Shown: positions 47,913 to 64,000, numbered from the stretch's first letter. The stretch is 64,000 nt of DNA from Rhodospirillaceae bacterium (GCA_029245025.1 JAQWQC010000008.1:44734-108733); one strand, 5' to 3'. Translations and numbers: made by a program. Notes: generated by a model not told the origin, from the letters alone.

Positions 47913-47964
47913 GAACGCACATTAGCATGGTTGACGGGCTGGATTGTGGCGCTACAAGGGCACT

Positions 47965-48507
47965 ATGACCACTGAGAACAATTCTGACGCCTATTGGGTT
48001 TTTGGCTACGGCTCCTTGATGTGGCGTCCGGGCTTCCCCTTCGCAGATATGGCCCCTGCCAGGCTCGCGGGCTGGCACCGGGATATGTGCATTCAATCCA
48101 TTCACTATCGGGGTACACCAGATATTCCTGGTCTTGTCAGCGGCCTGACCCCAGGAGGAGAGTGCCAAGGCCGGGCGTATCAGATTCATCCTCACGATGT
48201 CGCAGACGTCGTTGCCTATCTCGACGAACGTGAACTGGTGACCGATGTGTATTTGCCACAACATCATCCCGTGGCCTTGTCAGACGGTCGGTCCGTTTCT
48301 GCACGGGTTTATGTCGCTGATATCGATCACGACCAATTCGCGGGCCATTGGCCGATCAATCAAAAGATTCAGTATTTGCTTCAAGGCACGGGCTCGGAAG
48401 GCCGCAGCCTAGAATACCTAGCGAATATCGTGGATCAGTTGGGCCAGCTTGGCATCACGGATGACGGGCTGAGTGACTTGCTCGCGCAAGCCAAAGCCGC
48501 AGACTAG
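47965..48507 (+). CDS. gamma-glutamylcyclotransferase, ChaC family
   Basis: YWVFGYGSLMWRPGFPF motif. The ORF track starts at TTG 47944; ATG 47965 is plausible. Confidence 0.85.
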   Translation: MTTENNSDAYWVFGYGSLMWRPGFPFADMAPARLAGWHRDMCIQSIHYRGTPDIPGLVSGLTPGGECQGRAYQIHPHDVADVVAYLDERELVTDVYLPQHHPVALSDGRSVSARVYVADIDHDQFAGHWPINQKIQYLLQGTGSEGRSLEYLANIVDQLGQLGITDDGLSDLLAQAKAAD

Positions 48508-48508
48508 T

Positions 48509-49711: not shown

Positions 49712-49714
49712 GTT

Positions 49715-50947: not shown

Positions 50948-51032
50948 AGTGTGCGGCTCCTGAGTGGCGAAACAGAATGATCTATAATGCACCGGATGTA
51001 GCGGGATTCCCGGGGCAGGGCAACGGTTGGCG

Positions 51033-52232
51033 TTACGGTCCTAGCTTAGCTTCAGTGAGAACGCCGAGCTTGGCCATGCCATAGGGCAGAGCGCACGTGT
51101 CCCAAACCATTGATATATGGGAGCAGGCTGCCCCAATGTCCGCATAGGCTTTATGGACAAAATTATCATCGGCCAGGCCGCGGGCTCCCATCGCTTCGGC
51201 GAGGCGCCCCGTAGCGCGTTTAGACAATTTCCCAACGTAGGACGCGTTGCGTTTGAAGCGGGCGAGTTCTTCTAGGCTTAGGGCTGGACCTCCTTGAATA
51301 GAGTCCCGGACCCGCACCATGTCGTTTTCATAGAGAAGGCGTGCGCAGTCGATTTCCGCTGATGATTCAGAGGTTCGCATTTGTAGAGTCGCATTACCGG
51401 ATACTTTTTGGGCAAAGACATCCGTGCGCGGCACCATGTCTGCCGAGAAGCTATTTAATGCACCTTCGGCCAATCCAAGCGCGGGGGCAGAGACGCAATA
51501 GTTTATTACGCCGTTCATGGGGAGGCGGTACACGCTATTGGGGTTGCCCTCGGTTCCAGGTGTGTCGAGGCCATTGATTTCGGCATGACCGATGACCCGA
51601 TGTTCAGGGACAAATGCCTCCTCGATGACGAGGTCGTTACTGCCAGTGCCACGCAAACCGACGGTGCGCCAATTGTCTTGAATTTCGTAATCTTTTTTGG
51701 GCACCAACATAAACCAAATCTCTGGTGGTTTATCTTCATACATAATCCGCCCGATGACGATACACCAATCGCAGGCATGAATACCGCTTGAGAGCAGCCA
51801 CCGCCCGGAAATTTTAAATCCACCTTCGACTCGCTCAGTGGTTTGGTAGGCAGATGAAAAAGCTGAAGCGGAAATGGCGTCTGGGTTTTTGCCCCAAATG
51901 TCGTCCTGCGCGGACGGATCGAATTTTCCAAGCATCCAGTGGTGCGTGCCGCAAACGGACACAATCCAGGCAGACGATCCGCAGTGCTTGGCAATTTCTG
52001 CACCGGCTGACGTCTGAGCGCCAAACGGTAGTTCATAGCCGCCGACGCGGGCGGGTTGGCATCCCTTGAGCAAGCCAGCGCCGACTATGTCTCCAATGGT
52101 TTCGTCTGGGATGCGTCGCAGGTCATGGGTTTTAGCGCGTCGCTCGTCCAAAGTCGGACCAATTTTACGCGCTCGTTCGACCAAGTCGTCGACTGTTACT
52201 GCTGAAGCGTCACCGCTGGCGTCCGGGGCCAT
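51033..52232 (-). CDS. HsaA-like flavin-dependent monooxygenase oxygenase component, copy 3
   Basis: Paralog: ARVGGYELPFG...GTHHWMLG...GTGSNDLVIEEAFVP. ATG 52232 (MAPDAS..., GGAG upstream) parallels the copy 1 N-terminus. The ORF track starts at 52247. Confidence 0.8.
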   Translation of the reverse strand: MAPDASGDASAVTVDDLVERARKIGPTLDERRAKTHDLRRIPDETIGDIVGAGLLKGCQPARVGGYELPFGAQTSAGAEIAKHCGSSAWIVSVCGTHHWMLGKFDPSAQDDIWGKNPDAISASAFSSAYQTTERVEGGFKISGRWLLSSGIHACDWCIVIGRIMYEDKPPEIWFMLVPKKDYEIQDNWRTVGLRGTGSNDLVIEEAFVPEHRVIGHAEINGLDTPGTEGNPNSVYRLPMNGVINYCVSAPALGLAEGALNSFSADMVPRTDVFAQKVSGNATLQMRTSESSAEIDCARLLYENDMVRVRDSIQGGPALSLEELARFKRNASYVGKLSKRATGRLAEAMGARGLADDNFVHKAYADIGAACSHISMVWDTCALPYGMAKLGVLTEAKLGP

Positions 52233-52307
52233 ACCCGCAATCTCCATGTGGTCTTGATGCTAAGACGACTCTAGCGGGCGAGCCGGGTGCGGGCAAAGCG
52301 ATTCGGC

Positions 52308-52691
52308 TTAAATCTGACTGAGGTGCGCCAAGTGACCGGCGTTGTCTTCCCAGTTCTGACCATCGAAGGGTTCGACCTGAATTTCGCTAAAAGTGCTTTG
52401 ATCCAGGCAACGTATGTTGACGCTGTAGCCGTCCGGATTCGAGCGCGGGACGTAAAAGGATTTCACCCCACAGGTTCTGCAGAAAAGATGTTGTGCCACA
52501 CCCGTATTAAACGTGTAGGCCGTCAACGCGTCCTCGCCCTCTAGTAGTCTGAACCGATCAGCCGGAACGATGAGGTGAATAAAACCCACTTTCTCACACA
52601 TGGAACAATTGCAGGCTTGCGCGGTTACGGAGGCGTGGGCGACGACTTCAAACGCCACCGCGCCACAATGGCAGCCACCTTTATGCGTTAT
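52308..52691 (-). CDS. GFA-family (glutathione-dependent formaldehyde-activating / CENP-V-like) zinc protein with a non-canonical start
   Basis: CNCSMC and CRTCG motifs lie inside the tracked ORF (52308-52658). The family-typical KGGCHCGAVAFEV begins upstream of the GTG, where the only candidate initiator is ATA at 52691-52689. Confidence 0.65.
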   Translation of the reverse strand: MTHKGGCHCGAVAFEVVAHASVTAQACNCSMCEKVGFIHLIVPADRFRLLEGEDALTAYTFNTGVAQHLFCRTCGVKSFYVPRSNPDGYSVNIRCLDQSTFSEIQVEPFDGQNWEDNAGHLAHLSQI

Positions 52692-52716
52692 GAGAGCGCC
52701 ATCTTTTTTGCCATAG

Positions 52717-53361
52717 TTATGGCGCGAGCCGGGCGCGCAGTTCCTCGTATGGCACCATCACATGCTCCGCATACGCTGCGTTCTCGCGCAGGCGCGCGTA
52801 CCACGCCTCAACGTTGGGGATGGCCGGCCGCTCAATTTCTAACGTGAAGTAGCGATAAAATTGTGTGGCGATGGGAATGTCACCGTAGGTCAATTGATCA
52901 CCGGTGATGAATGCTTGCTTGCCTAGTACTTTATCAAGCTGTGTGAAATTTTCCCCACACGCCTTGGTCAGTTTGGCGAGTAGGGCATGGTCGTGATGTT
53001 CGACCGGTGTTCGATACAGATTCCAAAACAGTTGTATGAAATCATGCTGAAGGACCGTTTGCGCCCATTCCATCCACATATCGGCTGTTGTGCGCGGAGC
53101 GGGGTTTGAGGGCCAGAGTGATCCATCACCGTATTGGGCGGCGAGATAGCGCACAATCGCGTGGCTTTCCCAAACCGTCGCACTGTTATCTTCGAGAATG
53201 GGAATGAGACCGTGTGGATTGCGGGCTTTAATATCTGGCGAATCTAATCCGCCAAATTTTCCGCCGACGTCGATACGTTCATACTCTAGGTCAAGTTCCC
53301 CAATCGCCCACATTACTTTTTGGACGTTTATAGAACTGGCCCTGCCCCAAATTTTCAGCAT
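52717..53361 (-). CDS. glutathione S-transferase
   Basis: 214 aa reading SINVQKVMWAIGELDL...GLIPILED...VWESHAIVRYLA, a GST N-terminal fold pattern. Confidence 0.85.
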   Translation of the reverse strand: MLKIWGRASSINVQKVMWAIGELDLEYERIDVGGKFGGLDSPDIKARNPHGLIPILEDNSATVWESHAIVRYLAAQYGDGSLWPSNPAPRTTADMWMEWAQTVLQHDFIQLFWNLYRTPVEHHDHALLAKLTKACGENFTQLDKVLGKQAFITGDQLTYGDIPIATQFYRYFTLEIERPAIPNVEAWYARLRENAAYAEHVMVPYEELRARLAP

Positions 53362-53392
53362 GGCGTCGTGCTCCCGTTGCTATTTTTCAGCC

Positions 53393-54262
53393 TTAGCTGT
53401 TGACGGTGTCCTCAAAGGCTTTGACATCGTTCAAGCCCAACTTGGTGTTGGTTTCTTCGAGGGAGGCCATTTTATCAAGCCAGGGGCGTGAGTCGCCGGT
53501 CTCCTTGAGGTGAGCAAGAAATTCTGAGACCTGTCGCACGGCAATGCGTGAGGTGGTCGATGGCCAGATCGTGAGTTTGAAACCAATTTCTTCAAGCTCT
53601 TTGGCAGAAAGAATTGGGGTTAGACCTGTCTCACTCATGTTTGCCATCTGAGGGCCAATATCTGCATCGCAAATCTGTTGCAGTTCTTCGAGAGATTTAG
53701 GTCCATCGAAGAAAATCATGTCCGCGCCTGCATCCATAAACATCTTGGCGCGGTCCATGGCCTCGTCCATGCCATGTGGGCCACGTGAATCCGTGCGGGC
53801 GATGATGAGAAGGTCAGGGTCGGTCCGTGAGGCTACGGCGGCTTTGACTTTCCGTTCAGCAACATCTCGAGGCTCAACAAACTTGCCGGCCATATGGCCA
53901 CATTTTTTGGGCCAAATCTGATCTTCCAATTGCACACCTGCGACGCCGAGGGCTTCCATACCTTGGACGGTGCGTTTGACATTGGCGATGTCGCCATAGC
54001 CAGTGTCGCAATCAACGATCAAGGGAATCTCTGTCACCTGGCGCATGGCGCGGACTGTTTCTTCCAATTCTCCGTAACCGATCAGACCAACATCGGGCAC
54101 GCCATAGCGCACACAGGCACAGCCGTAGCCGGTCATGTATCCAACATCGAATCCGGCTTGCTCGATCAACTTGAGATCCAGCGGCGTTCCCGCACCCGGT
54201 GCAACGATCATGCCGGGGGCGGTCATTAGATCTCGAAGTTTCTTGCGTTGGGGCAGACTCAT
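53393..54262 (-). CDS. isocitrate lyase / PEP mutase superfamily enzyme (methylisocitrate-lyase / carboxyPEP-mutase / oxaloacetate-decarboxylase-like)
   Basis: CDTGYGD and EDQIWPKKCGHMAGK motifs. ATG 54262 has AGGAGA 6 nt upstream. Confidence 0.85.
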   Translation of the reverse strand: MSLPQRKKLRDLMTAPGMIVAPGAGTPLDLKLIEQAGFDVGYMTGYGCACVRYGVPDVGLIGYGELEETVRAMRQVTEIPLIVDCDTGYGDIANVKRTVQGMEALGVAGVQLEDQIWPKKCGHMAGKFVEPRDVAERKVKAAVASRTDPDLLIIARTDSRGPHGMDEAMDRAKMFMDAGADMIFFDGPKSLEELQQICDADIGPQMANMSETGLTPILSAKELEEIGFKLTIWPSTTSRIAVRQVSEFLAHLKETGDSRPWLDKMASLEETNTKLGLNDVKAFEDTVNS

Positions 54263-54283
54263 CAATTGTCTCCTATTGCCTTA

Positions 54284-54724
54284 TTAGGCGTTGTCAGTGA
54301 CGAGGCGTTCCATGCACGCTCGCAATTCTGTCGGGATGGGTGTCGGCTTGTTGTCAGGTCGTTGGACAAAAACATGCACAAAATGTCCATTAGCGGCGCA
54401 GTCGTCGTCGCCTTCGATGAATAGTCCAACTTCGTATCGTACTGATGAATTACCGAGCTTGCCGACGCGCAAACCTGCATCGACGACTTGGGGAAATTGA
54501 ATCGGCTTATGAAACGCGCAATGGGTTTCGATGGCGAGGCCGACAATGTCACCATGCTCAAAGTCTAGCCCGCCTTCACGGATCAAGTACTCGTTTATGA
54601 CTGTGTCAAAAAATGAGTAGTACACGACGTTGTTAACGTGCTGATAAACGTCATTGTCCTTCCACCGCGTTGGGATCTGTAGGAAGTGCTTGTAAGCGGA
54701 GCGGGATTCACCGCGCTGGGTCAT
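54284..54724 (-). CDS. hotdog-fold acyl-CoA thioesterase (4HBT/YbgC-like)
   Basis: 146 aa with the N-terminal pattern RWKDNDVYQHVNNVVYYSFFD. Confidence 0.8.
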   Translation of the reverse strand: MTQRGESRSAYKHFLQIPTRWKDNDVYQHVNNVVYYSFFDTVINEYLIREGGLDFEHGDIVGLAIETHCAFHKPIQFPQVVDAGLRVGKLGNSSVRYEVGLFIEGDDDCAANGHFVHVFVQRPDNKPTPIPTELRACMERLVTDNA

Positions 54725-54807
54725 GGCTTGTTATCCTGAACGATATCGCAAGCGCCTCGTATACCGGGCGCACCCTCCGCGAGCAAGCGGCGGGTTAAAG
54801 ACCGAAA

Positions 54808-55653
54808 CTAGAGTTCCGCTAAGACGTCTGCCACTTCATCAGCGTTGGTCATCATCGCGTTACGATGCCAGGGCATGGCGCGATAATCCCATTCCGGGTC
54901 ATCTTTGGCGGGTCCAACCATTCCCATCGTGGTCGGGCTGTAAATCTGTCCAACACAGTGCAGATAGGTCCGGGGCACGCCTTCCCAACCACCGTTTTTC
55001 AGCTCGAGCGTATCAGACCACCCTCGTGCGGGGTGGCGTGTGATGCGGCGTTTTGCCCAGGCGATGTTCTCTTCATCGTCTGCGGGGACAATCATTTCCA
55101 TAGGATATTCCTCAAAGAAATCCATCTGGTACCCGTCGACAAATTTCTCTTTTCTCTTCAGCCAGTAGTCTGAGGGCGAACCGTCTTCTTTTCTGCTTAC
55201 GCCACTGACGCGGTCTCCATGCGGCACCAAGGCATCCAAAAAGACCAACCGCTTGATTCGCTTTTTCATGCGGTCGGCAACGCCTGTGATGGTCAAACCA
55301 GCGAAGGAGTGGCCGACCAAGATCACATTTTGCAATTCTTCATACTCAATGATGTTGGCAATATCCGTGACGTGAGTGTCTAAGCCGACATCAGGGCTCA
55401 TGAGGTGCTTGCGGTCTCCGCACCCTGTGCAGGATGGTGCAAATACGTCATGTCCCCGGGCTGCTAGGTTGCGCCGCACATCGCGCCACTGCCATCCGCC
55501 ATGCCAAGTGCCGTGGACCAAAACAAAAGCTTTGCGCCCGGCGCTGCCGGAGTCACTTGCGGCGAGGGCGGTGCTGGCTGACAGCGCCGAAGCTGCGATG
55601 CCCAAGCCACTAGCGACGGCGCGACGGGAGAGCCCTGATTTGTGAGCGGTCAT
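54808..55653 (-). CDS. Tat-exported alpha/beta hydrolase of the plant-type methylesterase (SABP2/MES-like) family
   Basis: Twin-arginine signal MTAHKSGLSRRAVASGLGIAASALSASTALAA. VLVHGTWHGGWQWRDV and nucleophile elbow GHSFAG. ATG 55653 has AAGGAA upstream; the ORF track extends to 55800. Confidence 0.8.
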   Translation of the reverse strand: MTAHKSGLSRRAVASGLGIAASALSASTALAASDSGSAGRKAFVLVHGTWHGGWQWRDVRRNLAARGHDVFAPSCTGCGDRKHLMSPDVGLDTHVTDIANIIEYEELQNVILVGHSFAGLTITGVADRMKKRIKRLVFLDALVPHGDRVSGVSRKEDGSPSDYWLKRKEKFVDGYQMDFFEEYPMEMIVPADDEENIAWAKRRITRHPARGWSDTLELKNGGWEGVPRTYLHCVGQIYSPTTMGMVGPAKDDPEWDYRAMPWHRNAMMTNADEVADVLAEL

Positions 55654-56002
55654 GGCAGATGTTCCTTGTTTTCTGTGGCTTTCAAAGCGAACAGGCCTTT
55701 TTTTGAGGTTTTTTGCAACCCCAGGCGACCCTTTGCCGTTAGTGGTTGGTAAGGTCGGGCGGTTCAAGGAGTTCTCAAGTGTCGCCGTCTTGACCTGCAC
55801 GCTTAGTCCTCATGGACCGCTCGGCCTTGCCACCGTATCCCGGCGCTTTATGCGTCTTGTGTAAAATCGGAGGCTACAATGGCCAAATATTATGCTCTCG
55901 CACTTTCACTTGCTTACCCTGCCGGCGCTGTCGCGTCTCAGCTTGGGATCACCGTCCTCGGGCTATAGAGAGCCACACCAAAGTCGTACTACGCACGCTT
56001 AA

Positions 56003-56032
56003 CCTCTGCTTGGGTCTTTTGACAAGCAGAGG
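56003..56032 (-). terminator. 10-bp perfect hairpin downstream of the minus-strand small ORF; possible terminator
   Basis: CCTCTGCTTG-(10 nt)-CAAGCAGAGG lies 21 nt after the stop at 56053. No clear U-tract follows, so terminator function is uncertain. Confidence 0.3.
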
Positions 56033-56052
56033 AGTGTTAAGCAGTGAGGCAA

Positions 56053-56412
56053 TCAGTCTTCAAGCTCCGTGTTTTTGCCGTCACCTTTTTGTTGTAACGA
56101 GTCCAGTTCGTCTTGGACGGTTTTGAGCACACGAGCTATGTAGGCGCTGCGGCGTTCTGTACGAACTGCATTGACGTCATCTGGAATTTCGTAGTGCTCT
56201 ATATCATCGACTTTAAAGAGACCGTTGCTTTCGATGAGGCGCTCTACTGTGTCGAGGCGATCTCGCGTCACCGACAGTTCACCCATGAGGGTCAGAACCA
56301 TTGAAAGCAGTTTATCTACGGTGGGGTCGGCAAAGTACTGCGGCTTTTTGCCTTTGGCTGTGCGTGGCAGTTTGATTTTCTTTTGATCATCTTTGGGCAT
56401 GGTGCGTCCCAT
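56053..56412 (-). CDS. small helical protein of unknown family, paralog s1
   Basis: 119 aa. Shares LPRTAKGKK-x-YFADPTVDKL...DRLDTVERLI...DDIE blocks with 59145-59453 and 59480-59833. Starts 32 nt after the methyltransferase stop. Confidence 0.65.
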   Translation of the reverse strand: MGRTMPKDDQKKIKLPRTAKGKKPQYFADPTVDKLLSMVLTLMGELSVTRDRLDTVERLIESNGLFKVDDIEHYEIPDDVNAVRTERRSAYIARVLKTVQDELDSLQQKGDGKNTELED

Positions 56413-56444
56413 CCTTCTTTGCAGTCGTTCTGTTGATTATCGTT

Positions 56445-57575
56445 CTATTTGATCGCCATGGTGATGGGGAATTCGAAGCCATCGTCGGCGTAAGGCGTTT
56501 GATCTTCCATCCAAAATGATCCGGCCGATTTTGGAAGAATGTTCTCATCTTTAAAGCCGGCCTTGCGGCAGAGCTCAGGCATATCCATGTCGCGCAACTG
56601 GGCGAAGAAGTGTTCGTTGTTGTTGTATATTTCCCACTCGAACAGGAACCCTTCCAGGGGTGGTTGGCCATGAGCTTGCGGCAAATCCATATGCATCATC
56701 ACCCCGCCGGGCTTGAGCAAGCGGTAGGATTCATTGAAAACGTTCTGAATTGCCGTGCGTGATGTTTCGTGCAGGAGAATATGGGACATCACAATGTCGA
56801 AGCTCTCATCTTCAAAATTGGTGTGCTCCGCATTCTGCTGACTGAAATGTACGGCAGCGCCTAACGCCTCGGCGCGTGCATGACCATAACGTAGCACCGG
56901 AGCACCAACATCCAGGCCATGGCATTCGGCGTCTGGCATTTGCTGGGCCCAATAGGTGATGGAACCGCCGATGGTGCAGCCCATGTCCAGGATGCGTTTC
57001 GGTTTGGCATCGGGAAATTCGTTCTTGAAAAAGCCATAGGTGATTTGGCCGAGGGCGTTGTTGCCGGTGCCAAGACCACCCATGGAATAAATATAGGTGC
57101 CCCAGTCGTACATCGCGCCGGCGGCGACATCGTCATCGATTTGATCCGAATGATACGCACCCGGTTGCAAATGGATATCTGCAGCCACGTGATACTTCGG
57201 TGTTTCTAGATCTGGGTCGAGGGTCAACGATCCCTTGTTTCCCGGCTTGCGCGACTTTTCAATGAGCTCTGGCAATTGACGCTCAACCGAATCAATCACT
57301 GAATCCCAGATCATTTCCTGACTGTTGCGCTGCATGGCGCTCCAGAAGGAATAGTAGGGATCATGGGTCATGACTCGGCGTACTTCATGACGCGTTTCCG
57401 GTTCCCGGCCTTTATCCTTAATGAACTGAGGAAGAACCCTATTGTAATAGGTCGGGAAGTTTCCTGGGAAAACCTGGCTGGCCAAATGGACGCGGAAATC
57501 ATTGACGAAAGACTGGCGTGACTCTTCGTCGTGAACGCGCTTTGCAAGCATGCTGTGGTCTGAAAGAGGGATCAT
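56445..57575 (-). CDS. class I SAM-dependent methyltransferase-like protein with an uncharacterised ~170-aa N-terminal domain, paralog MT1
   Basis: Motif I ILDMGCTIGG, acidic post-I HGLDVGAP, FEDESFDIVMSHILLHETS and LLKPGGVMMH. GGAG 8 nt upstream of the ATG. Confidence 0.85.
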   Translation of the reverse strand: MIPLSDHSMLAKRVHDEESRQSFVNDFRVHLASQVFPGNFPTYYNRVLPQFIKDKGREPETRHEVRRVMTHDPYYSFWSAMQRNSQEMIWDSVIDSVERQLPELIEKSRKPGNKGSLTLDPDLETPKYHVAADIHLQPGAYHSDQIDDDVAAGAMYDWGTYIYSMGGLGTGNNALGQITYGFFKNEFPDAKPKRILDMGCTIGGSITYWAQQMPDAECHGLDVGAPVLRYGHARAEALGAAVHFSQQNAEHTNFEDESFDIVMSHILLHETSRTAIQNVFNESYRLLKPGGVMMHMDLPQAHGQPPLEGFLFEWEIYNNNEHFFAQLRDMDMPELCRKAGFKDENILPKSAGSFWMEDQTPYADDGFEFPITMAIK

Positions 57576-57747
57576 GGAAATCTCCGCTGCAATCGTTTGG
57601 TGATGGGCTGCACCTTATCGGGGTCAGCAAAGGAGGCGAGTCCTCTGCCTTGGGCGATCATCTGTTGGTCAGAGTATCGCCGGGCTTTGCGGCCAATTCA
57701 AAGGATTACAGCGTCCGGTGCATTGACCTTCGTCAAGCGGGGTGTAG

Positions 57748-59136
57748 CTAGGTCGCCGGGCAGACGTGGTCGACTAATACGGCGGTGTCGTCCAGCGTCT
57801 CGAGTTGTTCAATGATGCCAATCAATGCTTCCCCTCGGGCGCGCGGCATCTCTGACTTGGCCGCTGACCAACAGGCCCAGAACTTTTCAAGTTGGCGGTC
57901 ACGCGGCAGGGGATTGAGGGGGTCACCAATAGCGCGCTCAATTGTAAGGCTGTGTTCCGTCCCATCTTTTAAGACGACAGATATAGACTGCGGTCCAAAC
58001 GCATTGAGATCAGGATTGTCATCTTCAATAACGGTGACGCGACGGGCCAAGTCGTGGGTGGTTTCGTTGGCCAAGGCATCGATCGCAAAGTCGTGTTGGG
58101 TCACTGTACCGTTCAACAACGTAGCCGCGCAGACATAGCCGAGGCACAGCTTTGCGTAGTTCGGTTGTGGGTTTGGAATATCTGGCCGTCCGACGAGGCG
58201 ATTGGCCAGAGGCGGAACGCGACACGTTACGGTCTGCACGTCATCTGCTGTAAACCCGTGTTCAGCGGTGAGACGTTGCAACGCATCAACGGCAAAGTGG
58301 GTAAGTCGACCAGACGGAAACGGCTTATGCCCGACTTCACAGAGGCGAAAGACTTTGCCCCATTGAGACCACGCCGGCTCCAGGTCGTAGTCACCCTCCA
58401 TCAGAACAAGGTAGCCGTACATACCCGTCAGAATATCTTTTGGCCCTTCGATCCCGGCATCGGCCAGGTCGCAGGCGACCAAGGCATTGCGCGCGGCGAA
58501 GCCAACCTGCAACCCCAGCAGTCGCGAGCCTTCAATATGGGCCTGCATATTGCCGCCCGCTTGGCCGTAGTACAGGCCGAGAGCGTTATGGAGCTGGGGA
58601 CCGCCGAAGCCGCGCAGCAGGGATACCGCGGTTGTTGCGCCAAAGCCGCCGGTCAGGGCCGGTCGGAAAAATCTCATAGGCGCGTTTGAAGATGTAGCAA
58701 TGGAGCACGAGACATCAATGCCCATGGCGATGGCCCGAATGAGATCGCGTCCGTTGATCTTGCGTCCTAGTCCGGCCTGCCGATCGACTTCTGCCATGGT
58801 CGCAGCCATGAGGGTGGACATGGGGTGAAGCACGCCGCCTTCATGGACGCAGTCGAATTCTAGGCAGTGAATTTGGTAGGCGTTGACGACAGCGGCGCTG
58901 GTTGGTGGTAAGCGATCCGGGCGCGCCCATACTCTCGCGCCGTCTCCGGTTCCCCAAAGCTGTGCTGCTGTAAGGGCTTCATCTGACGATGGGCCAGTCG
59001 ATCCCGCTAGCGCACAAGAGAACGTATCAAGGACAAATATTTTAGCTGCCTCGACGGCGGCTGCGGGAAGATCTTCGAATCCGGTGCCCATAACATGGGC
59101 GACCATTGGCTCAACCGGATTGCCTTGAGATGTCAC
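57748..59136 (-). CDS. MmgE/PrpD family protein
   Basis: 462 aa. N-terminus ...VAHVMGTGFEDLPAAAVEAAKIFVLDTFSCALAG is typical of the 2-methylcitrate-dehydratase family. GTG start 8 nt after the upstream stop. Confidence 0.85.
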   Translation of the reverse strand: MTSQGNPVEPMVAHVMGTGFEDLPAAAVEAAKIFVLDTFSCALAGSTGPSSDEALTAAQLWGTGDGARVWARPDRLPPTSAAVVNAYQIHCLEFDCVHEGGVLHPMSTLMAATMAEVDRQAGLGRKINGRDLIRAIAMGIDVSCSIATSSNAPMRFFRPALTGGFGATTAVSLLRGFGGPQLHNALGLYYGQAGGNMQAHIEGSRLLGLQVGFAARNALVACDLADAGIEGPKDILTGMYGYLVLMEGDYDLEPAWSQWGKVFRLCEVGHKPFPSGRLTHFAVDALQRLTAEHGFTADDVQTVTCRVPPLANRLVGRPDIPNPQPNYAKLCLGYVCAATLLNGTVTQHDFAIDALANETTHDLARRVTVIEDDNPDLNAFGPQSISVVLKDGTEHSLTIERAIGDPLNPLPRDRQLEKFWACWSAAKSEMPRARGEALIGIIEQLETLDDTAVLVDHVCPAT

Positions 59137-59144
59137 AGGTCAGA

Positions 59145-59453
59145 TCAATCTTTTGGACCAGGTTCCGGATGCATGCGAAAGACCCGCTTCAAATAGGCTT
59201 CACGCCGTTCATTGCGCGCCGCTTCAACATCTTCATTTGGGCGATAAGCCTCTATGTCATCGCGGCTAATGGTTCCCTTGTCATCCAGCAGACGCTCCAT
59301 AGTGTCTAAGCGGTCGTAGACCACAGACACCTCGGCCGATAGTTCCAGGATAAACGTCATCATTTGATCAATCGCGGGATCGTCGAAAAAGACTGATCGT
59401 TTGCCCTTGGCGTCGCGGGGGAGGGTGATCTTGGGTTCTGCTTTCTGTGTCAT
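59145..59453 (-). CDS. small helical protein of unknown family, paralog s2
   Basis: 102 aa reading ITLPRDAKGKRSVFFDDPAIDQMM...YDRLDTMERLLDDKGTISRDDIEAYRP. Confidence 0.7.
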   Translation of the reverse strand: MTQKAEPKITLPRDAKGKRSVFFDDPAIDQMMTFILELSAEVSVVYDRLDTMERLLDDKGTISRDDIEAYRPNEDVEAARNERREAYLKRVFRMHPEPGPKD

Positions 59454-59479
59454 CTCTGTACTCGTTTTGTGGGCCGGTC

Positions 59480-59833
59480 TTAGGATTTGGCCAGTTCGTC
59501 CATCAGGGCGTTGTATTCGTCCATTTTGTCGTGGGCCACAAGTGTTTCTCGCTCTTCCCTGATAATGCGAAACAATCGCGATATGTAGTCGTTGCGCCGA
59601 TCGTTCCGTTCGTCTTCAACACCTTGATCCGGTCTAAAGGCCTCAATGTCATCGCGGCTCAGCGTGCCCTTCTTATCGAGCAGGCGTTCGATGGTGTCGA
59701 CCCGGTCGTAAAGAACAGACATCTCAGCTGACATCGCCATAACAATAGCCATAAGTTGATCGATGGCCGGGTCGTCGAAAAACGCTGGCCGCTTACCACG
59801 ATTTACCGGGGTGATCTTGATGTCGTCACTCAT
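59480..59833 (-). CDS. small helical protein of unknown family, paralog s3
   Basis: 117 aa from ATG 59833 (AAGGGA upstream, 7 nt after the MT2 stop), reading ITPVNRGKRPAFFDDPAIDQLM...YDRVDTIERLLDKKGTLSRDDIEAFRP. The ORF track extends to 59899. Confidence 0.7.
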   Translation of the reverse strand: MSDDIKITPVNRGKRPAFFDDPAIDQLMAIVMAMSAEMSVLYDRVDTIERLLDKKGTLSRDDIEAFRPDQGVEDERNDRRNDYISRLFRIIREERETLVAHDKMDEYNALMDELAKS

Positions 59834-59840
59834 TGCGGTG

Positions 59841-61031
59841 TCATCCCTTTTTCCATGCGCCCCAGCCGGTCCAATGTATTGATTCACCCAGGCGGCCATA
59901 CCGCTCGGCTTTGTTTTCTGGACCGGAAGCCGCAGCTCCGAAAATCTCCTGCGGAACGGAGTAAACGTCCGGCGTCATCACTTCCATATAGTCTTCGTCA
60001 CTGAACCCGGCGTCCGCATAGGCGGCCTTTAGGTCGGTTGATGTAAACGCCTGATAAAACGGCTCGTTGTTATAGTAGGAGTCCCAGTCGATATAGAAGG
60101 CGTCGAAAGGGTCCATTTCGGCAGTGCGCGGTAGCTCCATGTGAATCATCAGTCCGCCGGGCTTTAGGACTCGGTGGCATTCAGAGAGTATTTTTTTCAT
60201 CGCGGTACGAGATGTTTCATGAAACGTGACGACGGACAGCACGAGGTCGAAGCTCTCGTCCTCGAACGACATATCTTCCCCATTCATTTGATGCAGGTGC
60301 ATGGGCTGGTTGAGGGACTCTGCCCGTCCGTGGGCGTAACGTAAAACGGGAGCACTGACATCGATCGCGTGAACTTCGGAGTCAGGGTATATGTCGACAA
60401 ACGGTAGGATGTTGTGTCCCACGGTGCAGCCGATATCTAGAATTCGTTCAGGCCGGAAATCGGGGAACCGAATTTTTAAATGTTGAGCAAGGGATCGACC
60501 AATTGAATCGCCGTACGGTCCGCCATGACCGCCAGCATAGACATACACGCCCCGGTCATACAGTGCGCCTTGCGATACATCTCCCGGTGCCCGTTCTGAG
60601 TGATAGTTACCAGGCATAAGGTGAATGTCGCTGGCGGTCACGTAGCGCGGTACGTCAACTTCAGGGTTTAGAGTCAAAGACCCCTTTGGCGTTTTGGCGA
60701 GTGCGGTGGCCTTGGAATTGAGGTCGGGTTGGGCGCGCTCAATGGAGGGGATGATGGAGTCCCAAATCATTTCTTGGGCTGAGCGCATCATACTCGACCA
60801 TGTTCTGCAGTAGGGGTCATCCATCATTGCATGCCGGACTTCATGTTCGTCCTTCGGCGCACGCCCTTTGTTTTTTTCAAAACTTGGTTTGACCCGTGAT
60901 TCATAAACGCCACGCAACCCTCCACCGATTTCTTGCAGGGTAAACATGCGCAGGGCAGACACATAGGACTGCAGCGCGTATTCATCGTGCGTGGAATCAA
61001 CGGTCAAGCCGTGCGGAGCTTGTGAAGCCAT
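59841..61031 (-). CDS. class I SAM-dependent methyltransferase-like protein, paralog MT2
   Basis: ILDIGCTVGH, HAIDVSAP, FEDESFDLVLSVVTFHETS and VLKPGGLMIH. AAGGAG 6 nt upstream of the ATG. Confidence 0.85.
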   Translation of the reverse strand: MASQAPHGLTVDSTHDEYALQSYVSALRMFTLQEIGGGLRGVYESRVKPSFEKNKGRAPKDEHEVRHAMMDDPYCRTWSSMMRSAQEMIWDSIIPSIERAQPDLNSKATALAKTPKGSLTLNPEVDVPRYVTASDIHLMPGNYHSERAPGDVSQGALYDRGVYVYAGGHGGPYGDSIGRSLAQHLKIRFPDFRPERILDIGCTVGHNILPFVDIYPDSEVHAIDVSAPVLRYAHGRAESLNQPMHLHQMNGEDMSFEDESFDLVLSVVTFHETSRTAMKKILSECHRVLKPGGLMIHMELPRTAEMDPFDAFYIDWDSYYNNEPFYQAFTSTDLKAAYADAGFSDEDYMEVMTPDVYSVPQEIFGAAASGPENKAERYGRLGESIHWTGWGAWKKG

Positions 61032-61101
61032 GAGAATCTCCTTAGATGAAGTGTCATCATAGTCTAAGAAGTAATCTGAACGAGTCTAGAGACGCCGAAG
61101 A

Positions 61102-61329
61102 TTAGGGGCCAGCAGGCGGAGGTTGTGCCATAAACAGCCCATTGCCGCCTGGTTCTACCAGGATCATTTCTTTTTCAGGCGGATAATTCTCAGCTTTTGC
61201 AGCCTCTTCTGGGGTCATTAACACCTTGTAACCGCCCGCCACGACGCGCTCGTAGACAGCGTTAACGTCCTCTGCGGAGAGGGCTAGAGTTGTCGCCTTT
61301 GCAGTGTTGGCGGCGGCATCGATGGTCAT
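61102..61329 (-). CDS. 75-aa ORF resembling a single beta-alpha-beta-beta-beta (VOC/glyoxalase-like) module; possibly the 3' part of a frameshifted gene
   Basis: LALSAEDVNAVYERVVAGGYKVLMTPEE...ILVEPGGNGLFM. It has no SD of its own. Its ATG overlaps (ATGA) the stop of a 33-codon signal-peptide-like ORF (61326-61427) that does have one. Confidence 0.4.
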   Translation of the reverse strand: MTIDAAANTAKATTLALSAEDVNAVYERVVAGGYKVLMTPEEAAKAENYPPEKEMILVEPGGNGLFMAQPPPAGP

Positions 61330-61437
61330 GCCCGGCGCAGATCTGCCATGCTGGCGTCTTCATGGCTGTCTGACCAAGCGGTTGACGTGGCGATGACTGA
61401 GATAACAGCCGCGGCGAGTAAGCGCACCGTGTCGCCC

Positions 61438-62607
61438 TTAAACCGGAACCGTGCCGGGGTTGTACTCGAACAAACCAATGCTTTCTTCGTTCTTGTGTTT
61501 TGAGTCGTCGTACTCGCTAGGGTTATCGCTTTGCAGGCGTTCGCGAGCGGCGCGTGACTTGACTAAGACATAATTCGCACGCTCTTTGCGAGCGGCTTCA
61601 TAGCGTGAGAGGGCTTCATCAATTGTATCCGACGCGCCAAACGCTCGACCAAGAACGACACCGTCTTCGATCCCCATAGCGGCACCCATGCCCATAAATG
61701 GCAACATCGGGTGCGCTGCATCACCGAGCAAAGTCACGCGGCCTTTGGTCCATTGCTCCAAAGGGTCGCGATCATAAAGCGCCCATTTAAAGACTTTATC
61801 TTCGGGAGCAGCTTTGATGAGATCACTGACGCGCGGATGCCAGTCGCCAAACTCTTCAAGCAGTTCTTCTTGGGTTACCGGAATTGACCACCCTTCTTCG
61901 TCCCAGCCGTCGCGACGAACAAAAGCGACAAAGTTAATCACGCTGCCATTGCGAACGAGGTATCGCGTAAATGCCTTGCGCGGTGCTATGGCCACGCCGG
62001 ACGGAGGCGTAACCAAATCGTCTGACAGGTCACCCTTGTTGACGAGACCGCGATAGGCAACGTTACCGGTGAACTTTGGGTCTTCAGGGCCGAACATATC
62101 GGTCCGTACCGCAGAGCGAATCCCGTCCGCACCAATCACAACATCGCAGGAGACCTTGTTGCAATTGGTGAATGTGATTTCAATGCCATCGTCTGTTTCG
62201 ACACAGCTTGAAAAGGCGTGATCAAGAACCAAACAGTTGGGATCCGTAGCTTTGGCTTTGGCCGAAAGCATATCGTGCAAATCGGCGCGATGAATTTGAT
62301 AGTAGTACGCGCCATATTTTTGGAAAGGAATTTCACCTCGCTTGGTCTCAACCAGTATTTCCCCAGTCTGGTAGTGCATGATTGCTTGTGCTTCGGGGAC
62401 GTTGGCACGTTTCTTTAGATCCTCCGCTAAACCGACGTATTCAAGTCCGTGGGTGGAGTTCGGGCTTATTGTCAGACCTGCACCAACCTCGCCAAGTTGG
62501 GGAGCGAGCTCATAGACAACAGGCTTAAACCCATTCTTTTGGAGAGAGAGGGCGGCCGTGAGTCCAGCCATGCCTGCGCCAATTACAGCGATGCGAATAT
62601 CTTTCAT
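61438..62607 (-). CDS. FAD-dependent aromatic-ring hydroxylase (salicylate / 3-hydroxybenzoate hydroxylase-like)
   Basis: IAVIGAGMAGLTAAL (GxGxxG), and GDAAHPMLPFMGMGAAMGIEDG. ATG 62607 is preferred over ORF-track GTG 62655. Confidence 0.85.
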   Translation of the reverse strand: MKDIRIAVIGAGMAGLTAALSLQKNGFKPVVYELAPQLGEVGAGLTISPNSTHGLEYVGLAEDLKKRANVPEAQAIMHYQTGEILVETKRGEIPFQKYGAYYYQIHRADLHDMLSAKAKATDPNCLVLDHAFSSCVETDDGIEITFTNCNKVSCDVVIGADGIRSAVRTDMFGPEDPKFTGNVAYRGLVNKGDLSDDLVTPPSGVAIAPRKAFTRYLVRNGSVINFVAFVRRDGWDEEGWSIPVTQEELLEEFGDWHPRVSDLIKAAPEDKVFKWALYDRDPLEQWTKGRVTLLGDAAHPMLPFMGMGAAMGIEDGVVLGRAFGASDTIDEALSRYEAARKERANYVLVKSRAARERLQSDNPSEYDDSKHKNEESIGLFEYNPGTVPV

Positions 62608-62749
62608 GGGTGCGTCGTATCCTAAACAAGCGTGTTTTTTATTTTCGTTACCCACCTAGAGCGCATTCAAGAAGGCGCGACAATCCGCTTGGGATTGTAA
62701 ATCCAAGTAGCGGTCGTTTACCTGTCAGTTTGTGAGGTGCGAGTGAGAG

Positions 62750-63931
62750 TTATTTCCATGCGCCGTAGGTGTACCAACGGGCACTTTCACCGACCCGTGC
62801 GGCCCGGCCGTTTGCAACAGTAGGGTTGGTAACGGCCTCTTGAAAAAATTCTGGCGTCGATCGATCGAGATCGGGAATTGACACCTGCCAGAACTTATCT
62901 TGCGCGAATCCGGCGCCAGTCACCCATTCCTGTGGGTCGAGGTTGGTGTAGGTCTTATAAAAAGGCTCGTTATTATAATATGCGTCCCAATCGATATAAA
63001 ACGCGTCGAAATCATCCATGTTGGACACAGGCGTGAGTTCCGTATGGGCCATCATGCCGCCAGGTGCCAGCACCCGTTGGCACTCTTCCAATATTTTTGG
63101 GTACGCGGTGCGCGAAGTTTCATGAAAAATGATGCACGAGAAAATGAGATCAAATGACTCATCTTCGAAAGTCATATTTTCCGCATTCATCTGGTGAAAA
63201 TGAATTGGTTTAGCCAAAGCTTCAGCGCGCGCATGACCGTATCGCAGGGATGGCGCACTGACGTCGATCGCATGCACTTCGGCTTCGGGGAAGGCGTCAA
63301 CGAAGGGAACGGTTGACGTTCCGATAGTACACCCTAACTCTAAAATTCTTTTTGGTTTGAGGTCGGGCCAACGCGCTTTGATATACGCAGCCATGGTACG
63401 GGGGATGCCGTCCGCGAAGGGACCCGCTGCACCGCCGTTATAAACAAAGCGCCCGCGGTCATAGAGGGCGCCCTGGGTTGCGTCGTTGTCTGCTCGCTCG
63501 GAGTGATAATTGCCTGGCATGCGGTGAATATCGGCAGCCTCCAGATAACGAGGCATAGCAACATCGGAATTCAGGTTCAGAGAGCCGTAGTGTGCATTCA
63601 CACCACGTACTCTCTCGTTCAGGTCAGGCTGAGCCCGCTCAATGGCGGGCCGAACCGAATCCCAGACCATGTCCTGACAATTGACCATCATTGTTGACCA
63701 CGTCCGGCCGTAGTGGTCGGCCATCATGGCTTTGTGGATTTCCGTTTCGTTTTTGGGACTCCGCCCGTTGTCCTTTTCAAAGGCAGGTTTGACACGGTTC
63801 TCATAGACGTCTCGCATGCCGCCGCCGATTTGGTTCAGGATATGCATGCGCAAACGCGACACATAGTGCTGGCGGTTCATTTCATCGTGATTGCCGGTCA
63901 CCAAAAAACCGTGTTCGTGTTGTAGCGGCAT
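62750..63931 (-). CDS. class I SAM-dependent methyltransferase-like protein, paralog MT3
   Basis: ILELGCTIGT, HAIDVSAP, FEDESFDLIFSCIIFHETS and VLAPGGMMAH. ATG 63931 has AGGA 9 nt upstream. The ORF track extends to 63970. Confidence 0.85.
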   Translation of the reverse strand: MPLQHEHGFLVTGNHDEMNRQHYVSRLRMHILNQIGGGMRDVYENRVKPAFEKDNGRSPKNETEIHKAMMADHYGRTWSTMMVNCQDMVWDSVRPAIERAQPDLNERVRGVNAHYGSLNLNSDVAMPRYLEAADIHRMPGNYHSERADNDATQGALYDRGRFVYNGGAAGPFADGIPRTMAAYIKARWPDLKPKRILELGCTIGTSTVPFVDAFPEAEVHAIDVSAPSLRYGHARAEALAKPIHFHQMNAENMTFEDESFDLIFSCIIFHETSRTAYPKILEECQRVLAPGGMMAHTELTPVSNMDDFDAFYIDWDAYYNNEPFYKTYTNLDPQEWVTGAGFAQDKFWQVSIPDLDRSTPEFFQEAVTNPTVANGRAARVGESARWYTYGAWK

Positions 63932-63942
63932 GACGTTAAGTC

Positions 63943-64000
63943 CTACTTCCAGGCACCGTACATGTTCCACATCACCAGCTCACCCCAGTGGCCATGGGTG
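63943..64000 (-). CDS. 3' end of a probable fourth methyltransferase paralog (MT4), truncated by the window edge
   Basis: The open frame ...THGHWGELVMWNMYGAWK* ends in the same YGAWK C-terminus as MT3 (...WYTYGAWK*) and a tail similar to MT2 (...GWGAWKKG*). Confidence 0.5.
   Translation of the reverse strand, partial: THGHWGELVMWNMYGAWK

Follow-up and report, generated by a model that had tools for sequence, protein, structure and literature searches.

Methyltransferase genes coupled to genes for small, predicted helical proteins in catabolic-type operons of a Rhodospirillaceae bacterium and other bacteria

The window analysed here is a 64,000-nucleotide stretch of a Rhodospirillaceae bacterium genome (GCA_029245025.1, JAQWQC010000008.1:44734-108733) that ends in a cluster of minus-strand genes, in which methyltransferase-like genes (MT1 to MT4) are interleaved with genes for small proteins (s1 to s3) and oxidative enzymes. 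An ORF check recovered the paralogs MT1, MT2 and MT3 in full and MT4 as a 3' end at the coordinates claimed in the initial annotation, together with its three paralogous small ORFs, PrpD-family gene and FAD monooxygenase, and the four short spacings it reported are exact. The genes between 48509 and 55800 lie downstream of s1 in the same direction and were counted to the same cluster. In order of transcription the features are:

63943-64000, minus strand: 3' end of MT4, last 18 codons plus stop, the remainder outside the window
62750-63931, minus strand: MT3, 393 aa ORF, Pfam Methyltransf_25/11 at residues 196-294, without an s gene of its own
61438-62655, minus strand: FAD monooxygenase of aromatic type (salicylate hydroxylase- or 3-hydroxybenzoate-6-hydroxylase-like), Pfam FAD_binding_3
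61102-61329, minus strand: VOC/glyoxalase-like remnant, 75 aa, weak Pfam Glyoxalase match
59841-61031, minus strand: MT2, 396 aa ORF, Pfam methyltransferase domain and AF2 model, putative catalytic half of an MT2-s3 pair
59480-59833, minus strand: s3, 117 aa ORF, small predicted helical protein, 7 nt past the MT2 stop
59145-59453, minus strand: s2, 102 aa ORF, small predicted helical protein, tandem paralog of s3 and 26 nt past it
57748-59136, minus strand: MmgE/PrpD-family gene, Pfam MmgE_PrpD_N and MmgE_PrpD_C, 8 nt past s2
56445-57575, minus strand: MT1, 376 aa ORF, Pfam class I methyltransferase domain
56053-56412, minus strand: s1, 119 aa ORF, small predicted helical protein, 32 nt past the MT1 stop
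54808-55800, minus strand: α/β-hydrolase, ORF with the Pfam label of the syntenic gene
54284-54724, minus strand: 4HBT thioesterase, ORF with the Pfam label of the syntenic gene
53393-54265, minus strand: PrpB/methylisocitrate-lyase-like ORF, NCBIfam prpB 265 bits, below cut-off
52717-53361, minus strand: GST, ORF with the Pfam label of the syntenic gene
52308-52658, minus strand: GFA, ORF with the Pfam label of the syntenic gene
51033-52247, 49715-50992 and 48509-49711, minus strand: three HsaA-like flavin monooxygenases, NCBIfam HsaA 279 bits, below cut-off

Start sites vary slightly among relatives, in which s1 begins four codons later (115 aa), the FAD monooxygenase begins at Met17 (389 aa) and MT3 uses an ATG, although the ORF here extends without a stop as far upstream as a GTG at 63970. 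The 58-nt MT4 fragment translates to THGHWGELVMWNMYGAWK followed by the stop, and the 393-aa MT4 of L001-L003 (contigs 97-99% identical) ends in exactly this sequence. Orthologs of MT3 occur in L001-L004, and the MT1-s1 unit is kept in L004, L009, L011, L013 and L016; an exact-protein lookup of MT2 returned no match. The tiny VOC-like ORF of the initial annotation is present but is not an intact gene: in the near-identical L001 and L002 it encodes 148-174 aa, and a visible alignment break marks the ~190 bp (N-terminal) that are lost here. The gene is wholly absent from L004, an 87%-identical genome. The FAD monooxygenase matches FAD_binding_3 at E 1.7e-27, and its top NCBIfam match, 3-hydroxybenzoate 6-monooxygenase, scores 247 bits, under the cut-off of 459. 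By its domains the interleaved PrpD-family gene belongs to the MmgE/PrpD superfamily of dehydratases, decarboxylases and isomerases; it scores 18.7 bits against 458 for 2-methylcitrate dehydratase (TIGR02330) and has no NCBIfam match at E ≤ 1e-20. A promoter and terminator scan gave no enrichment over shuffles, and so no information on operon boundaries, and an Rfam scan of 47000-64000 found no riboswitch and no other RNA family.

As had been proposed, the MTs are paralogs of the class I SAM methyltransferase type. MT1 is the most divergent (41-42% identical to MT2 and MT3, which share 56%), and all the sequence blocks originally listed are shared: E(M)IWDS, DIH-x-PG-x-YHS, IL(D/E)xGCT(I/V)G, LRY(G/A)H(A/G)RAE, FEDESFD, (L/F)HETSRTA and L(K/A)PGG. 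Matches to Methyltransf_25/11/31/12 exceed the Pfam gathering cut-offs (E 1e-19 to 1e-22) and place residues ~190-300 in the class I Rossmann fold; this SAM-binding core is the only part of the proteins that matches known families. Alignment with LahSB, the top PDB match, and BH2331 identifies motif I (LDxGCTxG), the acidic residue that closes β2 (D224), as well as N250 and an FD motif (D262). Among 72 MT sequences G201 and D262 never vary, conservation of D224 and T203 is ≥90%, and a His-Glu pair after β4 is invariant. Motif I is a GxTxG variant with Thr where the central Gly is expected, a point against the methyltransferase reading, in which SAM binding is assumed. The AF2 model of MT2 has a pLDDT of 93.8, with the β/α core above 90, and in Foldseek against the PDB it matches Rossmann methyltransferase cores only, many with probability 1.0 and at TM ~0.4.

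The nearest cores in NCBIfam, PDB and Foldseek comparisons are those of small-molecule enzymes (UbiE/BioC-like, RebM, MitM and PMT), and the MTs do not belong to the UbiE/COQ5, BioC or Tam families as curated. Scores reach 48-53 bits against 158 for UbiE/COQ5 (TIGR01934), 43-57 against 185 for BioC (TIGR02072) and ~24-25 against ~300-320 for the Tam models, and at 376-396 aa with an extra 170-aa N-terminal domain the MTs differ from the single-domain UbiE/COQ5 proteins of ~230-250 aa. Current annotation calls them just "class I SAM-dependent methyltransferase" or, wrongly, "UbiE". Among PADLOC anti-phage systems there is a generic methyltransferase-domain overlap with mad2 only, and nothing for s. 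The N-terminal ~170-aa helical domain has no match in Pfam, NCBIfam, PDB sequence and profile searches, or Foldseek against the PDB. PDB sequence and profile searches with MT2, the N-domain and s gave generic methyltransferase matches only. A KdpD match (E 0.005) in the family and structure searches is a spurious 30-residue alignment.

The small ORFs, mutually 36-54% identical, are real genes. At the amino acid level they are 93-98% identical to their L004 counterparts (98.3% for both s1 and s3) while synonymous change is saturated, and for s3, the one gene for which the ratio was calculable, dS is 1.86 and dN/dS 0.006, which points to strong purifying selection on the s genes. The family HMM scores s3 at 140 and s1 at 127, and s2 has 158 word-index homologs. 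The family comprises 1344 representative clusters at 50% identity, nearly all of them stand-alone proteins of 90-200 aa. The sole candidate for an MT-s fusion among these clusters, P0380, has an out-of-frame-looking Arg-rich linker and was discarded as a likely frameshift or gene-calling artefact. Members combine a basic tail with an acidic body (pI 4.7-5.5) without Cys, carry the conserved N-terminal segment LPRxxKGKRPxFFDDP and have near-invariant charged positions at E41, R48, E53 and R80; certain homologs bear long Lys/Ala/Pro-rich tails resembling histone H1. A fair AF2 model of s2 predicts a disordered basic N-tail and three helices that form a helical hairpin, as expected if folding takes place against a partner. 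Neither Pfam nor NCBIfam matches s1, s2 or s3, sequence and profile searches of the PDB gave no relative, and the s2 model has no Foldseek match in the PDB; the idea that s is a part split off from the N-domain of the MTs was rejected (hhalign probability 3%). The statement that the N-terminal ~170 aa and the small proteins belong to no described family thus stands across Pfam, NCBIfam, PDB, Foldseek against the PDB, PADLOC and the literature, where full-text searches on the gene combinations, caprolactamase with MT, and pJE1 found nothing relevant and no publication on the MT-s pair.

The two families belong together well beyond this locus. In a survey of 80 genomes from many phyla found through MT, s lies directly downstream of 68 of the 92 evaluable MT genes, with a median gap of 5 nt between MT stop and s start (≤15 nt in 50 of the 68 pairs, and an overlap of 1 or 4 nt in 18). 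The reciprocal survey of 80 metagenome loci found through s places a family MT within 6 kb of 69 of 76 evaluable s genes (52 adjacent and 17 more), and the seven apparent exceptions belong to a conserved cluster, whose fully sampled example has an MT ~6.4 kb upstream of s. Pairwise distances of MT and adjacent s are correlated (r = 0.82, Mantel p = 0.001, 75 pairs), the trees mirror each other, and paralogous pairs inside one genome co-diverge as well. At least 518 MT-s loci occur among species-representative genomes, in Alpha- and Gammaproteobacteria, Binatia, Myxococcota and cyanobacteria, and cultured carriers include Novosphingobium resinovorum SA1, Sphingomonas sp. JE1 (plasmid pJE1), Niveispirillum irakense DSM 11586 and Thermaurantiacus tibetensis.

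The pairing has exceptions. No s is found within 10 kb of 11 of 101 family MTs, nor do MT3 and MT4 each have their own, so an s gene in cis is not a universal requirement. The earlier description of the small genes as co-amplified with the MTs accordingly holds in part: MT1-s1 and MT2-s3 resemble copies of one two-gene unit and s2/s3 is a tandem s duplication, but MT3 and MT4 do not fit. Clusters of the sphingomonad type have the MT kilobases away from s, which overlaps by 4 nt the start of a gene for an OYE/BaiCD-like Fe-S flavoenzyme, and in L009, L011 and L016 an s gene follows an FAD monooxygenase, so s may serve the pathway or the flavoenzymes and not the MT alone.

Recurrent neighbours of MT-s are hydantoinase/caprolactamase-like A/B, PrpD (its family lies beside MT-s in other taxa too), CoA-transferase, flavin oxidoreductases, α/β-hydrolase, and MFS and TonB-dependent transporters, with GntR or LysR regulators in many clusters; MT-s pairs in cyanobacterial loci have no adjacent flavoenzymes. 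Six candidate pathways lacked defining genes or cut-off-level matches: a creatinine/N-methylhydantoin route (hydantoinase with isochorismatase-like amidase), the gentisate pathway, nicotinate-type N-heterocycle degradation, steroid A-ring meta-cleavage (HsaA-like, hydrolase, VOC), tricarballylate/aconitate metabolism, and betaine synthesis by serial N-methylation. Judged from gene content, MT-s is a widespread and so far undescribed two-gene unit in catabolic operons of many bacteria. The initial annotation had proposed an undescribed system; the gene pair is indeed undescribed, but it is not self-contained, being embedded in a larger catabolic-type operon. None of the outcomes named there as fatal to the idea (a characterised pathway, no co-occurrence elsewhere, unconserved small ORFs) was encountered.

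Several known systems resemble the proposed pair. In the Trm112 holoenzymes (Trm9, Trm11, Bud23, Mtq2/HemK2) class I SAM methyltransferases require a non-catalytic activator of ~100-130 aa, and one partner type can serve several methyltransferase paralogs. The proposed combination of class I enzyme and small partner is alike; however, Trm112 is a zinc-knuckle α/β protein for RNA and protein methyltransferases of the translation apparatus, whereas s, predicted to be all-helical, lacks Cys, matches neither a Pfam family nor a known fold and does not qualify as a Trm112-type activator, and the MTs resemble small-molecule enzymes in catabolic operons. The ubiquinone metabolon (UbiE/UbiG, UbiH/I/F, UbiJ/UbiK) likewise unites UbiE-like methyltransferases, FAD_binding_3 hydroxylases and small helical accessory proteins, but NCBIfam scores for UbiE, UbiG and the Ubi hydroxylases here are all far under cut-off, Pfam finds no UbiK/BMFP (PF04380) or SCP2 domain in s1, s2 or s3 at E ≤ 0.1, and CoA-transferase, PrpD, lyase and hydrolase genes take the place of a prenyltransferase and decarboxylase. 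In pyocyanin synthesis the N-methyltransferase PhzM works with PhzS, a salicylate-hydroxylase-like FAD monooxygenase, and a comparison at the level of Pfam likewise shows here an MT encoded beside such a flavoprotein, with an isochorismatase-family gene in the wider cluster; there are no phenazine core genes here, PhzM is an O-methyltransferase family 2 protein with a dimerisation domain, and we know of no small partner for it. The likeness to carboxyl masking by BioC/BioH or Tam lies in weak best NCBIfam matches (BioC, fatty-acid O-methyltransferase, Tam), in recurrent α/β-hydrolases as possible methyl-esterases, and in adjacent di- and tricarboxylate enzymes (PrpD, PrpB-like, CoA-transferase III, TcuA-like flavoproteins). 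In contrast, the MTs score 40-60 bits against cut-offs of 185-340, and BioC and Tam are ~250 aa proteins without the N-domain or a partner protein.

We give roughly even chances to the reading that MT is a small-molecule methyltransferase with s as its dedicated non-catalytic partner or adaptor, recruited together into aerobic catabolic operons. The family-specific N-domain would probably act as a substrate lid on the Rossmann core. Translational coupling would produce s in step with MT, and s may bind it by the acidic helical body, the conserved N-terminal segment, or both, either to stabilise or activate the enzyme as a subunit or to link it to neighbouring flavoenzymes as an adaptor. Here the module would have expanded to four MTs and three s proteins, which share one long catabolic-type operon with a CoA-transferase, an isochorismatase-like amidohydrolase, the FAD monooxygenase, three HsaA-like monooxygenases, PrpD-like and PrpB-like proteins, thioesterase, α/β-hydrolase, GST and GFA. 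Most likely the MT paralogs differ in the position they methylate or act on intermediates that follow one another; the acceptor would be a hydroxyl or carboxyl group, and the compound an oxygenated aromatic, alicyclic or polycarboxylic one. Four SAM-consuming steps in one catabolic operon are costly and unusual, which counts against this reading.

It is conceivable, if unlikely, that s is instead the scaffold or adaptor of a multi-enzyme assembly of MTs and flavin hydroxylases or reductases, in the manner of UbiJ/UbiK. The operon brings together four MTs and four flavin monooxygenases, s is translationally coupled to the OYE/BaiCD-like enzyme in L007, L153 and L161 and follows the FAD monooxygenase in the three loci noted above, s2 and s3 are in tandem, the MT to s ratio varies (4:3 here, 1:2 in L009), and the long helices modelled for s would suit coiled-coil oligomers. 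Against this, an MT followed immediately by s is the dominant arrangement, the two co-diverge tightly, s has no Pfam match to BMFP/UbiK or SCP2, and the cyanobacterial pairs have no flavoenzyme neighbours. Co-divergence also argues against s as a small nucleic-acid-binding regulator or anti-regulator of the operon, linked to MT by co-regulation only, which we consider barely probable; the basic N-terminus, the H1-like tails and the GntR/LysR genes that mark these loci as regulated catabolic units would fit, whereas the acidic body, the lack of an HTH, RHH or other Pfam match, and the presence of three copies in this one operon, all in translational coupling with enzyme genes, are atypical of regulators.

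The conserved, disordered and basic N-terminal motif of s raises the possibility that s is itself the substrate, with Lys or Arg methylation in KGKR, or at a conserved Arg, serving as a modification switch. LahSB modifies a peptide and rickettsial protein-lysine methyltransferases are among the weak PDB matches, but among 271 family members no Lys is invariant (K18 50-80%, G17 96%, R19 88%), the closest MT cores act on small molecules, the context is consistently catabolic and transport-related, and several MT paralogs share fewer s proteins, all of which makes this improbable. There is a slim chance that the MT-fold proteins are not methyltransferases and perform hydroxylation, decarboxylation or cyclisation of the RdmB/SpnF type, with or without SAM. 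The deviant motif I and the invariant His-Glu pair are compatible with such chemistry, which would be a better fit to an oxidative catabolic operon, a setting in which one does not expect SAM to be consumed repeatedly; however, the remaining SAM-contacting positions are all conserved, and Foldseek likeness to known non-methylating enzymes of this fold stops at the generic core.

The MT-s module is large and widespread yet unannotated, s having no Pfam or NCBIfam model or structural relative, and it resides in transporter-linked catabolic islands of taxa known as degraders of complex organic matter. We consider it rather unlikely, on present evidence, that MT-s represents a heteromeric class of methyltransferases not recognised before, in which both the substrate-lid domain and the partner fold are new, and that its methylation is obligatory in the aerobic breakdown of recalcitrant organic matter. 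If true, its substrates would be oxygenated aromatic or alicyclic (carboxyl-rich) matter, methylated at carboxyl or hydroxyl groups in marine, freshwater and soil bacteria, and methylation would be a catabolic tactic as opposed to a biosynthetic or detoxifying one. Cultured carriers make the module experimentally tractable, and because of its setting in catabolic islands, identification of the substrate could reveal a missing pathway step and could also show a new small-protein control of small-molecule methyltransferases.

The methyltransferase genes (MT1 to MT4) and the genes for small helical proteins (s1 to s3) lie in one array on the minus strand of the window. Each ORF listed in the initial annotation was found, and the spacings that it quoted between genes (7, 26, 8 and 32 nt) are exact.

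Features of the MT-s locus
48509-52247, end of operon: three tandem HsaA-like paralogs (Acyl-CoA_dh_2)
48509-55800, co-directional with the MT array: α/β-hydrolase through HsaA-like genes
56053-56412, minus: s1
56445-57575, minus: MT1
57748-59136, minus: PrpD-family gene
59145-59453, minus: s2
59480-59833, minus: s3
59841-61031, minus: MT2
61102-61329, minus: VOC-like ORF, 75 aa
61438-62655, minus: FAD monooxygenase
62750-63931, minus: MT3
Past the window edge (contigs L001-L004), divergent unit: hydantoinase B, hydantoinase A, HMG-CoA-lyase-like

MT1 shares 41% identity with each of MT2 and MT3, MT2 and MT3 share 56%, and the three s proteins are 36-54% identical to one another. The final 58 bases of the window translate to THGHWGELVMWNMYGAWK and a stop, the exact C-terminus of the complete 393-aa MT4 in contigs 97-99% identical to the window. 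A correction is needed only for the tiny VOC-like ORF, which is present as annotated but is the stump of a larger VOC/glyoxalase-like gene (within 61032-61437) that has lost ~190 bp relative to those contigs, where it encodes 148-174 aa. This gene is wholly absent from L004, an 87%-related genome, and appears to be decaying or dispensable in the operon.

The near-identical and related contigs (L001-L004) reveal the genes past the window edge. Beside the divergent unit, the co-directional array starts with CoA-transferase III, an isochorismatase-like hydrolase, MT4, MT3, the FAD monooxygenase, the VOC-like gene where present, and MT2, followed by s3, s2, PrpD, MT1 and s1, and then by an α/β-hydrolase, a 4HBT thioesterase, a PrpB/methylisocitrate-lyase-like protein, GST, GFA and the HsaA-like flavin monooxygenases. 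The latter trio resembles the oxygenase components of the HsaA and p-hydroxyphenylacetate-hydroxylase flavin-dependent monooxygenases, and no partner flavin reductase was noticed nearby. GST is a full-length 214-aa ORF in the window (52717-53361) and in L004; the 93-aa N-terminal fragment called in L001 and L002 (17719-18000; 97%-identical contigs) may come from a frameshift in these assemblies or be a pseudogene. Beyond the cluster lie the housekeeping genes ChaC, DUF2125, tyrA-like, an aminotransferase and metX/metW. The metX (homoserine O-acetyltransferase-like α/β-hydrolase) and metW genes, at 42253-44060 and ~4.4 kb past the cluster end (48509), are ordinary methionine-biosynthesis genes that probably have nothing to do with the MT cluster. 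A promoter/terminator consensus scan of the locus gave no information, and no Rfam elements were found there.

The MTs belong to the class I superfamily yet to no curated family. Pfam covers only residues ~190-300 of each, with generic class I methyltransferase families, and NCBIfam matches (CpaM, UbiE/MenG, BioC, Mtf2, Tam and others) reached 40-60 bits against cut-offs of 155-650, none passing. Searched against PDB with phmmer, the core aligns to LahSB, BH2331, RebM, MitM and phosphoethanolamine MTs. In these alignments the central Gly of motif I is replaced by Thr (LDxGCTxG), and the acidic β2 residue (D224), N250 and the FD motif (D262) are retained; across 72 family members, each of these positions is either invariant or conserved at ≥90%. 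The SAM-MT core is intact. The AlphaFold2 model of MT2 is confident (pLDDT 93.8, pTM 0.92) and places long helices (residues 15-111) before the Rossmann core. Foldseek against PDB returned generic MT cores only (TM ~0.35-0.45), an HMM of the N-domain alone found no PDB match, and this helical domain is novel.

For the s proteins, neither Pfam nor NCBIfam gave a match, nor did sequence or profile searches of PDB, and they are not homologous to any MT segment. The s model (pLDDT 76.6), for which Foldseek gave no match, starts with a basic, disordered N-tail and continues with helices at 26-59, 64-69 and 74-91; the proteins combine this basic tail with an acidic body (pI 4.7-5.5) and lack Cys. 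Residues E41, R48, E53 and R80 and a GKRPxFFDDP segment are conserved in s. A profile search over 1.84 billion representative proteins recovered 1344 clusters at E ≤ 1e-3 (605 of them at E ≤ 1e-10), almost all stand-alone proteins of 90-200 aa. Some homologs (P0278, P0251, P0167 and P0197) carry long Lys/Ala/Pro-rich, histone-H1/HC2-like N- or C-terminal extensions, which suggests polyanion binding (nucleic acid, membrane or polyphosphate) in those lineages.

The initial annotation had proposed an undescribed system, to be given up if the two families did not co-occur elsewhere, if s was not conserved as coding sequence or if profile searches led to a characterised pathway, and none of these proved to be the case. 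The Pfam, NCBIfam and PDB searches gave no such placement. Compared with L004, protein identity is 98.3% for s1 and s3 and 93.1% for s2 with synonymous sites saturated (dS >1.8 or incalculable; dN/dS 0.006 for s3), a constraint at least equal to that on the MTs. Scanning the MT alignment against species-representative genomes yielded at least 518 loci, of which 80 were retained from Rhodospirillaceae, Sphingomonadaceae, Steroidobacteraceae, Halieaceae, Cellvibrionaceae, Kordiimonas and Niveispirillum, and from Binatia, Myxococcota, Thermodesulfobacteriota and two cyanobacteria. Carriers available in culture include Novosphingobium resinovorum SA1, Sphingomonas sp. JE1 and Niveispirillum irakense. 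Of 92 evaluable MT genes, 68 are directly followed on the same strand by an s gene. The gap between the MT stop and the s start has a median of 5 nt and is no more than 15 nt in 50 of these 68 pairs; 18 pairs overlap (−4 or −1), as is typical of translational coupling. Conversely, an s-centred scan of metagenome contigs (76 evaluable s genes) found a family MT adjacent in 52 and within 6 kb in 17 more, 69 in all. The remaining seven, with no MT inside ±6 kb, share one gene arrangement; its complete version, in Sphingomonas L007, has the MT ~6.4 kb upstream of s. Distances among MTs and among s proteins of adjacent pairs are correlated (r = 0.82, Mantel p = 0.001), and in any one genome the paralogous pairs have diverged together, from which we infer duplication as a two-gene unit. 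The small helical protein is conserved, apparently co-translated and co-diverging with its MT, in a recurrent context.

The pairing has exceptions. MT3 and MT4 have no s of their own, and 11 of the 101 family MTs have none within 10 kb; such MTs are spread over several small clades. Two s genes flank one MT in L009, and in L011 and L016 it is the FAD monooxygenase that precedes the s3-s2 pair. The conserved sphingomonad-type cluster runs MT, MFS, FAD_binding_2, α/β-hydrolase, TonB receptor, s, OYE/BaiCD-like Fe-S flavoenzyme and SDR, with s overlapping by 4 nt the start of the 661-aa flavoenzyme (L007 8001-10279; L153 5980-8270; L161 5965-8255). The sole apparent MT-s fusion in the representative library, P0380 (364 aa), joins the MT C-terminal region to a normal s start (MKSELPRKAKG) through an Arg-rich, out-of-frame-looking linker, and most likely arose from a frameshift or a gene-calling error.

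Across unrelated taxa, the genes found repeatedly around MT-s include MmgE/PrpD, CoA-transferase III and an isochorismatase-like amidohydrolase; flavoenzymes (FAD_binding_3 monooxygenase, flavocytochrome c/TcuA/KstD-like FAD_binding_2, FAD_binding_4 oxidases and OYE-type); SDRs and α/β-hydrolases; MFS transporters and TonB-dependent receptors; and GntR/LysR regulators. Hydantoinase/caprolactamase-like A and B also recur, including on plasmid pJE1 of Sphingomonas sp. JE1. They directly follow MT-s on the same strand in L059 and in L023, L025-L027, L073 and L085 (Binatia, immediately downstream of s, and one Thermodesulfobacteriota-labelled MAG), and precede it on the same strand in L018; this four-gene block is looser on pJE1 and divergent in the lineage of the window. 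A poorly characterised VOC-like protein of 310-350 aa recurs too, and no other gene is found as often beside s2-type genes (29 of 80 loci: L120 785-1831, L082 6376-7317 and 27 more among L095-L174); only some members give a weak Glyoxalase/VOC signal, and others have no Pfam match. Since the accessory enzymes all scored below the equivalog cut-offs, the loci cannot be assigned to a known pathway. They look like transporter-linked islands for the aerobic catabolism (or transformation) of oxygenated aromatic, alicyclic, lactam or polycarboxylic compounds. Cyanobacterial neighbours differ (trpB-like in one; ALDH, ADH and SnoaL in the other), which argues that s travels with the MT and not with a particular substrate.

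We give an even chance to a heteromeric small-molecule methyltransferase in which s is the non-catalytic partner of the SAM enzyme. As subunit or adaptor, s would bind the MT or bridge it to neighbouring flavoenzymes, and the paralogous MTs would methylate different positions or successive intermediates. Adjacent α/β-hydrolases may later strip methyl esters, following BioC/BioH logic; alternatively, methylation may cap hydroxyls put on by the four flavin monooxygenases. That s is instead a metabolon scaffold seems unlikely. Its being a protein substrate of the MT is more doubtful again, and the finding that no Lys is invariant among 271 family members speaks against it. We consider non-methylating chemistry by the MT fold improbable, and a regulatory role for s the least probable of these readings.

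For the proposed heteromeric methyltransferase, the nearest functional precedents are Trm112 with its MTs and the Ubi metabolon with UbiJ/K; tests of membership placed the pair in neither, and full-text literature searches found nothing on it. Class I MTs are a known kind of enzyme, and we rate as new the putative lid domain of this one and the family of its proposed dedicated partners. MT and s constitute a portable element inside the transporter-linked islands, one that is widespread, unannotated and experimentally tractable.
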